Shown: piece by piece, positions 1,358 to 2,109 of the stretch
Layout: each line of letters starts with the position of its first letter
How positions within the stretch are numbered: the first letter of the stretch is position 1
Source: a virus
Lineage: Duplodnaviria > Heunggongvirae > Uroviricota > Caudoviricetes
Virus record (IMG/VR): IMGVR_UViG_2703718801_000009
Coordinates: 1 to 5,184 of that record
Length of the DNA: 5,184 nt
Strand: one strand, 5' to 3'
The notes under the pieces: generated by a model
Seen by the model: only the letters and a program-made list of their open reading frames with translations
What the model was told of the DNA's origin: nothing
Database searches by the model: none
Translations under genes and position numbers: made by a program

Positions 1358-1855
1358 ATGAAATCATTAACCCTCTTCAATCAACCAATCCGTATCGGTG
1401 AAGATGGCATGATCTGCCTCACTGATATGTGGAAAGCCAGTGGTAAAAGTGAATCTGAATCTCCGTACCACTACCTGCGAAACAAGCAGACCAAAGAGTT
1501 CTTGGCTGAGCTGGAGAAAAACCACGAATCTGTGGTTTTTACGGAACGCGGTGCGCACGGTGGAACTTATGGCGGAAAGTTCGTTGCTTATGATTACGCA
1601 GCATGGCTAAACCCCGGATTTAAATATGCAGCCTATAAAGTCCTCGATGATTACTTCACCGGAGAGCTTCATCATCGGAACAGCTTAAGTGCGCAGCTCA
1701 ACATGAAATGTCATGAGTTTGATCAGAAAAAAGACATGGCGAGCTTCTGTGGACAAGGCCTCGCGGCATGGCGCTACACGAAACCTGGTTTGATCGCTGA
1801 AATTAACTCCCTGGCTAACCAGTTGCAGATTTCGATCCCCGGGCTTCCGGGATGA
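1358..1855 (+). CDS. KilA-N domain-containing protein
   Basis: 165-aa ORF. The segment IRIGEDGMICLTDMWKASGKSESESPYHYLRNKQTKEFLAELEK...GAHGGTYGGKFVAYDYAAWLNPGFKYAAYKVLDDYF fits the conserved KilA-N pattern (DG...L.D..KA.G......P..WL....T.EF..EL...GG..GTY..K..AY.YA.W..P.F). Stop overlaps the next ATG (ATGA). Confidence 0.8.
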   Translation: MKSLTLFNQPIRIGEDGMICLTDMWKASGKSESESPYHYLRNKQTKEFLAELEKNHESVVFTERGAHGGTYGGKFVAYDYAAWLNPGFKYAAYKVLDDYFTGELHHRNSLSAQLNMKCHEFDQKKDMASFCGQGLAAWRYTKPGLIAEINSLANQLQISIPGLPG

Positions 1856-2109
1856 GTGATCGTGTCATTGAATGCGCCTCCAGAGCGGGGCGCGACTTCT
1901 CAGAGTTCATGAAAGGCGAGAAGGGTATGATGGAAGCATTGGCCTCGGTGGATGAGTTTGGCGAGCAGCTGCGCCTCAACGGCTGTGTCAATCATCACTT
2001 TGTTAGCTACATGATGCGGAACTCGATCATGCAGGCATTCATGGACATGGCAAAAGCCGAGAGGAAAGAAGAGCGCCGGCGTAAGCGAGCGGAAGCAAAA
2101 GCGAAGTAG
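1852..2109 (+). CDS. Hypothetical small protein with a strongly basic C-terminal tail, translationally coupled to the KilA-N gene
   Basis: 85-aa ORF whose ATG overlaps the KilA-N stop in an ATGA junction. C-terminus is AKAERKEERRRKRAEAKAK. No family recognised. Confidence 0.5.
   Translation: MSDRVIECASRAGRDFSEFMKGEKGMMEALASVDEFGEQLRLNGCVNHHFVSYMMRNSIMQAFMDMAKAERKEERRRKRAEAKAK

Follow-up and report, generated by a model that had tools for sequence, protein, structure and literature searches.

A KilA-N gene and a coupled small gene form a widespread cassette of lambdoid phages behind a putative regulatory RNA leader

In this study, we analysed a viral DNA stretch of 5,184 nucleotides (nt) (positions 1 to 5,184 of IMG/VR record IMGVR_UViG_2703718801_000009; hereafter the window), which is the lysis-to-packaging junction of a lambdoid prophage resembling Shiga toxin (Stx) phages. 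It carries a KilA-N gene (open reading frame 1, ORF1; 1358-1855, + strand) directly followed by a gene for a protein of 85 amino acids (aa) (ORF2; 1852-2109, + strand). The cassette formed by these two genes is real and widespread in lambdoid phages, and functionally uncharacterised. The reading that we favour, tentatively and with somewhat less than even confidence, is that the pair represents one allele of an exchangeable late-operon accessory cassette of enterobacterial lambdoid phages, which is under post-transcriptional control. More loosely still, we consider it possible that the 5' element of about 170 nt is an unrecognised cis-regulatory, perhaps dual-function RNA family, which gates translation of potentially toxic cassettes of so-called Bro-network genes in late operons and serves as a homology arm for their exchange, and that ORF2 is a new generic module occurring stand-alone or fused to T5orf172. 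Databases already contain the protein sequences, filed under hypothetical genes of well-known phages. New are the anatomy of the cassette, the family of structured leaders and the placing of ORF2 as a Bro-network module; what the two proteins do is something that we infer.

ORF1 encodes a protein of 165 aa of the HK620 hkbK type, in which a Pfam profile search found a KilA-N domain (PF04383) at residues 9-101 (58.4 bits against a cut-off of 23.8) and an ORF11CD3 domain (PF10549) at residues 109-161 (47.5 bits against a cut-off of 25), thus bearing out the KilA-N assignment of a preliminary description drawn up from the letters of the window. Its AlphaFold2 (AF2) model (predicted local distance difference test, pLDDT, 84) consists of an alpha/beta domain (residues 1-84) and a long antiparallel helical hairpin (86-156), the form in which ORF11CD3 is modelled, and the ratio of nonsynonymous to synonymous substitution rates (dN/dS) of 0.03-0.10 indicates a real gene under purifying selection. 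The Bro network, a concept reportedly due to Iyer, Koonin and Aravind in 2002, comprises proteins domain-shuffled from KilA-N, Bro-N, Rha, P22_AR_N, ORF11CD3 and T5orf172; ORF1 fits this scheme and, judged by its domains, is a standard member.

The ORF2 protein, of the HK620 hkbL type, matches PHROG 875, a family which bears no function label, over its entire length (residues 1-85 on profile positions 1-85, E 3.2e-54). AF2 predicts with a pLDDT of 93 a three-helix protein, with helices at residues 3-20 and 26-42 and a long C-terminal helix (48-84) carrying the basic tail already pointed out in the preliminary description, which ends in AKAERKEERRRKRAEAKAK. The ECASRAGRDFSEF.KGEK motif, C8 and C45 are invariant in the family, and dN/dS of 0.04-0.28 again points to purifying selection on a real gene. 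No Pfam or NCBIfam family matched ORF2, and neither a fold search of its model against PDB and BFVD nor a search of PDB sequence profiles gave anything significant, so the statement that it has no recognised family stands, with PHROG 875 as its only assignment. The ORF1 model had no significant fold match in PDB, where the sequence-profile search was empty too. The homology and structure check that had been proposed thus yielded confident helical AF2 models of ORF2 and of the KilA-N C-terminus, though no significant PDB or BFVD relatives. In two remote relatives, the ORF2 domain stands at the N-terminus of T5orf172/MUG113 proteins (hhalign probability 96.6%); one fusion gene lies immediately 5' of a KilA-N+P63C gene and the other alone in the post-lysis slot, and one of them is preceded by the leader described below (covariance model match). 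T5orf172 is itself a Bro-network domain, so ORF2 is best regarded as one more component of that network. The name Bro-network is used for such proteins in PMC10111431; the descriptions of the network that were consulted include neither a stand-alone PHROG 875 module nor its T5orf172 fusion nor a shared terminator-plus-leader element.

Three proteins were considered as natural ORF1-ORF2 fusions and rejected, P0001 as a frameshift artefact and P0004 and P0123 as chimeras of ORF2 with the C-terminal part of Rz. P0004 is joined at a shared RRKRLQV stretch and P0123 after about 42 residues, suggesting deletions between ORF2 and an Rz gene. Small ORFs behind other Bro-network genes (a hydrophobic one of 48 aa, one of 67 aa, Gp49, sb55 and others) were examined as hidden ORF2 relatives, and none is one.

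As had been noted for the window, ORF1 and ORF2 share the letters ATGA, in which the TGA stop of ORF1 occupies 1853-1855 and the ATG start of ORF2 occupies 1852-1854. ORF2 lies directly behind a KilA-N gene or its remnant in 95/95 loci. The junction is an ATGA overlap in 86 of these and a 2-nt gap (TGAnnATG) in 8, and the junction sequences inspected lack a Shine-Dalgarno (SD) sequence for ORF2 in both types, a pattern which supports the translational coupling claimed earlier. The two junction types go with two kinds of partner, KilA-N+ORF11CD3 of 165 aa (ATGA, 86 loci) and KilA-N+P63C of 242-251 aa (2-nt gap, 8 loci), whose KilA-N domains are 24% identical, yet their ORF2 proteins are 98% identical. 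A distant ORF2 relative is found behind a Rha-type gene with the same TGA/ATG overlap, and the C-terminus of this Rha is of a third, unrelated type.

On the other hand, homologs of KilA-N+ORF11CD3 without ORF2 occur at 77% identity (Cronobacter), 83% (phage cdtI) and 50% (phiEt88); the corresponding genes of ST64B, SPN3UB and D3 and all distant homologs are also without it, and the Ant-like gene of the window and the Rha genes of its relatives bear ORF11CD3 but no ORF2. Intact ORF2 stands beside a truncated KilA-N gene in 3/95 loci, and one Salmonella locus with an intact KilA-N gene has retained no more of ORF2 than its first 14 codons. The co-occurrence that the preliminary description proposed to check therefore holds in one direction, ORF2 being always behind a Bro-network gene, and fails in the other, KilA-N homologs at 77-83% identity being without ORF2. 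Because ORF2 is always behind such a gene and not vice versa, it depends on an upstream Bro-network gene, most simply for translation. As a partner of KilA-N, it is not obligate and not specific.

The pair is present in HK620, Stx phages, P22-like Salmonella phages and Klebsiella phages, in the last of which it lies between tail genes, so that a conserved two-gene unit moving between genomic contexts, as proposed, is what is found. In HK620, hkbK/hkbL is the same pair, also located after Rz, with an identical ORF2 protein and a KilA-N protein of >93% identity. In HK97, HK022 and mEp phages, an ORF2-family gene lies behind a different KilA-N gene after the lysis genes: the small protein of HK97 gp73/HK97p61 belongs to the same family, but the partner is KilA-N+P63C and the junction has the 2-nt gap instead of the ATGA overlap of the window cassette. 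Klebsiella phages carry both partner kinds between tail genes. The counterparts in HK620, HK97 and Stx phages 1717 and 2851 are annotated only as KilA-N domain or hypothetical proteins, and a literature search on hkbK, hkbL and gp73 returned no relevant publication. ORF2 DNA was found in 530 of 5,426 complete E. coli genomes (about 10%), unnamed in every case. The ORF2 family is a very small one of Enterobacterales: it forms 138 clusters when grouped at 90% identity, 1.84 billion proteins contain 21 representatives of it at 50% identity, and 185,579 species genomes contain 7 loci.

Among 39 distinct cassettes, the leader had a nucleotide diversity of 0.15-0.25 and KilA-N one of up to 0.115, compared with about 0-0.01 for ORF2; the low value of ORF2 could reflect recent spread or extra constraint, and choosing the loci by ORF2 identity precludes its interpretation. 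Two records with the cassette, L008 (PP818812.1, 'Actinobacillus phage') and L089 (JARKOR010000234.1, a contig of a 'Candidatus Nanosynbacter' metagenome-assembled genome), share near-identical E. coli-type lambdoid sequence which includes a tellurite-resistance gene besides the KilA-N cassette, and host mislabelling or contamination is likely in them. In Klebsiella phage ST11-VIM1phi8.1 (L007), a match to the P22-type sar antisense RNA (4170-4234, minus strand), which at 37.6 bits falls short of the gathering score of 43, lies in an immI-like Arc/Arc/Bro-N region a few kb from the KilA-N cassette.

The architecture of the 170 nt upstream of the KilA-N gene is conserved everywhere at lower identity, Klebsiella tail-operon copies included. 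The preliminary description had placed tandem terminators here, and hairpins with T-runs are indeed present on the + strand at 1133-1163 (a weak hairpin with a T8 run at the Rz end; terminator scan, -6.0 kcal/mol, z -1.1), 1187-1210 (T1, a strong intrinsic terminator GAGCCUCGC-GAU-GCGGGGCUU with a U-run; -14.6 kcal/mol, z -2.7) and 1218-1242 (H2, a small GC hairpin with T6, the second conserved 5' element); they are, however, parts of one conserved 5' element, and what had been taken as a third terminator (1298-1311) is the apical GC hairpin of a long rod described below. T1 is kept 5' of the cassette in HK620, HK97, P22-like phages and Klebsiella tail-operon copies, with a compensatory change from CGC/GCG to CGG/CCG among copies, and the H2 position is occupied in all cassettes by an equivalent hairpin of different sequence. 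A generic terminator scan of the window found 7 terminators against 5.9 expected, which is not above chance; we take the terminator-like elements as real because genomic contexts that are otherwise unrelated keep them together with the cassette.

The leader itself (1250-1351, + strand; 76.6 bits and E 4e-16 with our R1 covariance model) is predicted to fold into a rod (minimum free energy -48.7 kcal/mol, z -3.1) in which the SD of the KilA-N gene (UAGGU, 1346-1350) pairs with an anti-SD (ACCUGC, 1250-1255). Among leader types, the SD is paired with a segment of CCUUU type on the 5' side, and the middle helices vary in sequence with complementarity kept; in the predicted fold of the window variant, additional segments on the 5' side (ACCUGC) and the 3' side (GUAGGU) pair with each other, thus hiding again an SD which has shifted. 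The ribosome-binding site (RBS) is thus predicted to be sequestered in a conserved long-range helix. In a sequence-only MAFFT alignment, 81% of cells were paired against 36-55% in slid controls, with a covariation score of 0.25 against <=0.14; in the model-fitted alignment, which leans towards structure, 86.6% were paired against 40-53%, and both sides had changed in 18/28 pairs against 2-10. RNAalifold with RIBOSUM scoring recovered the same rod once a fragment and duplicates had been dropped.

All 44 matches of the leader model were on the coding strand, and a start codon followed 8-12 nt downstream in 33 of the 35 examined. The genes behind it encode several kinds of KilA-N protein, P22_AR_N, Rha+ORF11CD3, BRO-N, HNH_3+AP2, one tail-tip-like protein and the T5orf172 fusion. 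A second copy, of which the window edge leaves the 3' part (1-31, + strand; R1 positions 69-100, E 0.008), precedes the Ant-like gene, and its full version is visible in relatives (L102:2430-2530). Rfam held no family for the leader in the window or 8 related loci (E <= 1). The Stx-phage small RNAs Pas, AgvB and AsxR were considered as its identity and rejected, since they map elsewhere and their Rfam models gave no match.

An RNA from this element has been seen before. A 2026 study of P22 small RNAs (PMC13397905) lists P22F, an 89-nt RNA on the + strand which ends 6 nt before the rha start, was validated by reverse transcription PCR and has no known function. Its sequence as given there begins with 81 nt that recur without a mismatch (81/81) at 1264-1344 (+ strand) of the window, and the leader model matches P22 at the P22F site with 76.8 bits; thus, in P22, the leader RNA accumulates as a discrete species during infection. 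P22F is not presented as a conserved structured leader in PMC13397905. The rha cassette of P22 (orf201) and phi80 occupies the same Rz-terminase slot with the same leader variant, and the Rha of L102 shares the C-terminal ORF11CD3 with ORF1, but the N-terminus of the P22 rha product is Phage_pRha instead of KilA-N, and P22 is without an ORF2 homolog. Rha reportedly inhibits phage growth in IHF-deficient hosts, a finding ascribed to Henthorn and Friedman in 1995. The annotated start of P22 rha/orf201 (L112:1432, P22-pbi) falls within the structured leader (L112:1393-1490) and Rha homology begins at 1501; the true start is probably a downstream ATG, in line with P22F ending 6 nt before the 'rha start'.

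The authors of PMC13397905 likened the small RNAs of P22 to IsrK of Gifsy-1, and the IsrK-orf45-anrP system is the closest mechanistic analogue. There, a terminator-containing leader yields a short stable RNA, the read-through mRNA is silent with its RBS sequestered in a long-range helix, and an antirepressor-type gene with toxic output is reached by translational coupling (PMC4825925). The window cassette resembles it in the terminator-like hairpin of the leader, the predicted sequestration of the RBS, the short leader RNA known from P22 and the probable coupling. However, IsrK is transcribed from a promoter of its own, the ORF that provides the coupling precedes the antirepressor in Gifsy-1 but follows KilA-N in the window cassette, and the isrK and C4 models of Rfam had no match in the window or 8 related loci (E <= 1).

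At the other end of the cassette, a two-tier hairpin (2108-2149, + strand; -27.2 kcal/mol, z -6.9) encloses the ORF2 stop and an ATG at 2144, and is followed by 423 nt without credible ORF up to a TonB_C lipoprotein gene at 2533, as the preliminary description had it with a hairpin and a gap of about 420 bp. The hairpin, which marks where the conserved cassette ends on its 3' side, is kept by compensatory variants in L037, L092, L006 and L093. A factor-independent terminator such as follows morons was not found 3' of the cassette, the hairpin being without a U-tract in E. coli and Salmonella copies and having T5 only in the Klebsiella ST11 copy. The ATG at 2144 opens an ORF of 8 codons only in the window (MAYTLHGIT, 2144-2170), and its equivalent begins a conserved small ORF (MKPEFILGNQLRQYHE...) in many relatives.

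The high-identity block common to different contexts runs from just before the ATG of the KilA-N gene to about 2146. The slot is polymorphic: the closest full-length relatives have Rha+Gp49 in place of KilA-N+ORF2, other occupants are BRO-N and HNH-AP2, and in one prophage BRO-N, a coupled ORF of 67 aa and KilA-N+ORF2 stand one behind the other. It is plausible that the shared leader and 3' hairpin act as recombination arms, and the HNH-AP2 alleles hint at nuclease-assisted exchange. ORF2 remnants of the first 14 or 22 codons (L108:3061-3240, L008:2501-2566) are joined to the 5' element of the next cassette or to unrelated sequence, and are footprints of cassette-cassette recombination.

How the cassette would be expressed depends on its position. 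Late operons of lambdoid phages are read by a Q-modified, terminator-resistant polymerase, and the HK620 annotation places pR', qut and tQ 5' of the cassette. A simple sigma-70 consensus scan, which weak or activator-dependent promoters could escape, found no promoter-like site on the + strand of the window, and no promoter consistent across contexts was found between T1 and the ATG. The suggestion that the cassette is autonomous thus holds for its mobility but apparently not for its transcription, as no + strand promoter was found and it starts with a strong terminator. We propose that the cassette, in the order strong terminator, small hairpin, SD-pairing rod of about 100 nt, Bro-network gene, optional coupled small ORF and 3' hairpin, would be transcribed only by the terminator-resistant late polymerase and be silent in the lysogen; the 5' terminator would keep it off there, and the rod would hold translation down for as long as the leader is neither opened nor processed. 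ORF2 would arise by termination-reinitiation, in amounts no higher than those of the KilA-N protein, which would bind DNA through its N-terminal domain and oligomerise through its helical hairpin. ORF2 would be an accessory module common to Bro-network cassettes, which probably binds nucleic acid or serves as an adaptor, and not a co-evolved subunit specific to KilA-N. A regulatory role for the pair is plausible, and the likely one would be that of a late-acting regulator or a host- or competitor-directed factor of the Rha/Ant/Kil kind, harmful if mis-expressed. Silence in the lysogen and gated translation fit products which harm on mis-expression, such as P1 KilA, cited in the BstA literature as lethal on expression, and Rha with its reported inhibition in IHF mutants.

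Several points weigh against the late-operon reading. Late-only transcription depends on the simple sigma-70 scan having found no promoter, and HK620 has a marginal TTCACA-16-TATTAA upstream of the cassette. On the raw fitted alignment, RNAalifold gave no pairing at all, and with default scoring of the cleaned one it recovered apical helices only; some leaders have alternative folds of similar energy, and as the leader sequences are related, shuffle controls overstate significance. The locus sample is biased to near-identical copies, and fold and sequence searches for ORF1 and ORF2 gave no significant relatives.

Of the rival explanations, a selfish homing-type mobile cassette, which would spread by recombination at its conserved ends with little benefit to phage or host, is unlikely. 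The leader also precedes HNH_3+AP2 genes, which have homing-endonuclease architecture, and the ORF2 domain is fused to the GIY-YIG-like T5orf172 in distant relatives; boundaries are sharp while genome positions differ, otherwise near-identical prophages show allelic replacement, and remnants from cassette-cassette recombination exist. However, the Pfam profile search found no nuclease domain in ORF1 or ORF2, both are under strong purifying selection, and shared regulation explains the conserved ends equally well. The preliminary description had considered an anti-phage pair acting by exclusion or in the manner of abortive infection. As a rival explanation, this would be a prophage system like BstA, in which the KilA-N protein senses or binds invading phage DNA and ORF2 is effector or modulator, both being expressed in the lysogen. 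We regard it as improbable: what speaks for it is the precedent of BstA of BTP1, an abortive-infection protein with a KilA-N-like N-terminal domain, a weak PADLOC match of ORF1 to the candidate PDC-S22 (E 1e-8) confined to about 30 residues of the KilA-N core, and moron-like neighbours such as the TonB_C lipoprotein gene, while the best PADLOC match of ORF2, QatB, is at chance level (E 0.02). BstA is a two-domain protein of about 300 aa, and although it shares the KilA-N-like N-terminus with ORF1, its own C-terminal domain is not in ORF1, which has 165 aa and ends in ORF11CD3. BstA is also encoded beside the repressor, is made during lysogeny and has aba as its cognate DNA element (no aba-like element was searched for here), whereas the window cassette sits behind terminators in a late operon, as other copies do in late operons including tail operons, with no promoter found and with a strong terminator and a sequestered SD directly 5' of the KilA-N gene. 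Thus the anatomy points away from expression in the lysogen, and from a defence pair.

Two further explanations concern the relation of the two proteins. An obligate specific heterodimer, in which ORF2 is a subunit dedicated to this KilA-N protein and sits on its ORF11CD3 helical hairpin, would agree with the strict adjacency and coupling of ORF2 and with the long helices exposed in both AF2 models, but is a shade less probable than the anti-phage system, as nearly the same ORF2 protein stands behind P63C-type partners with dissimilar KilA-N domains, its relative follows a Rha protein with another C-terminus, and Ant-like and Rha genes bear ORF11CD3 without ORF2. Least probable is a kil/anti-kil pair of the toxin-antitoxin kind, in which ORF2 neutralises a toxic KilA-N protein. 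The lethality of P1 KilA would suit it and tight coupling would fix the ORF1:ORF2 ratio, but intact KilA-N genes at 77-83% identity live without the partner, another intact KilA-N gene stands before its 14-codon remnant, ORF2 remains intact next to truncated KilA-N, and the same small protein follows unrelated partners.

The exchangeable late-operon cassette matters beyond this prophage, as Bro-network genes (KilA-N, Rha, BRO-N, Ant-like) belong to the unexplained genes encountered most often in temperate phages, Stx phages included. The shared terminator-plus-leader element would be a testable handle on their regulation, would account for P22F, and suggests a route of cassette exchange between phages, while ORF2 would add one more module to the network.

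The window opens on its left side, where the closest records are Stx phages 1717 and 2851, with the Ant-like P22_AR_N+ORF11CD3 gene (40-609) and a small hydrophobic ORF of 48 aa (609-755), which is annotated in RefSeq relatives. The ATG of the latter (609) overlaps the Ant stop (TGATG), making this a second Bro-network gene with a coupled small ORF, one that is not related to ORF2. Rz/Rz1 (752-1155 region) lie between the hydrophobic ORF and the KilA-N gene. Rz seems to be broken by a 40-nt deletion compared with the Rz of L102 and phage 1717, its N-terminal transmembrane part (GTG 752) and C-terminal 107 aa (832-1155) being in separate frames, while Rz1 (917-1102) is intact; lysis by the prophage may be impaired through this disruption. 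Downstream of the cassette, the TonB_C lipoprotein gene (2533-2874; PHROG 1267, labelled 'Rz-like spanin') is followed by a YlcI/DUF3950 gene on the minus strand, an HNH endonuclease gene and the genes of the small and large terminase subunits at the right end, a side on which phage JLK-2012 and E. coli O55:H7 prophages are the closest records. The TonB_C gene is found in only some relatives, and because homology to most Stx phages stops at about 2398, its region (about 2398-2874) looks like a separate insertion.

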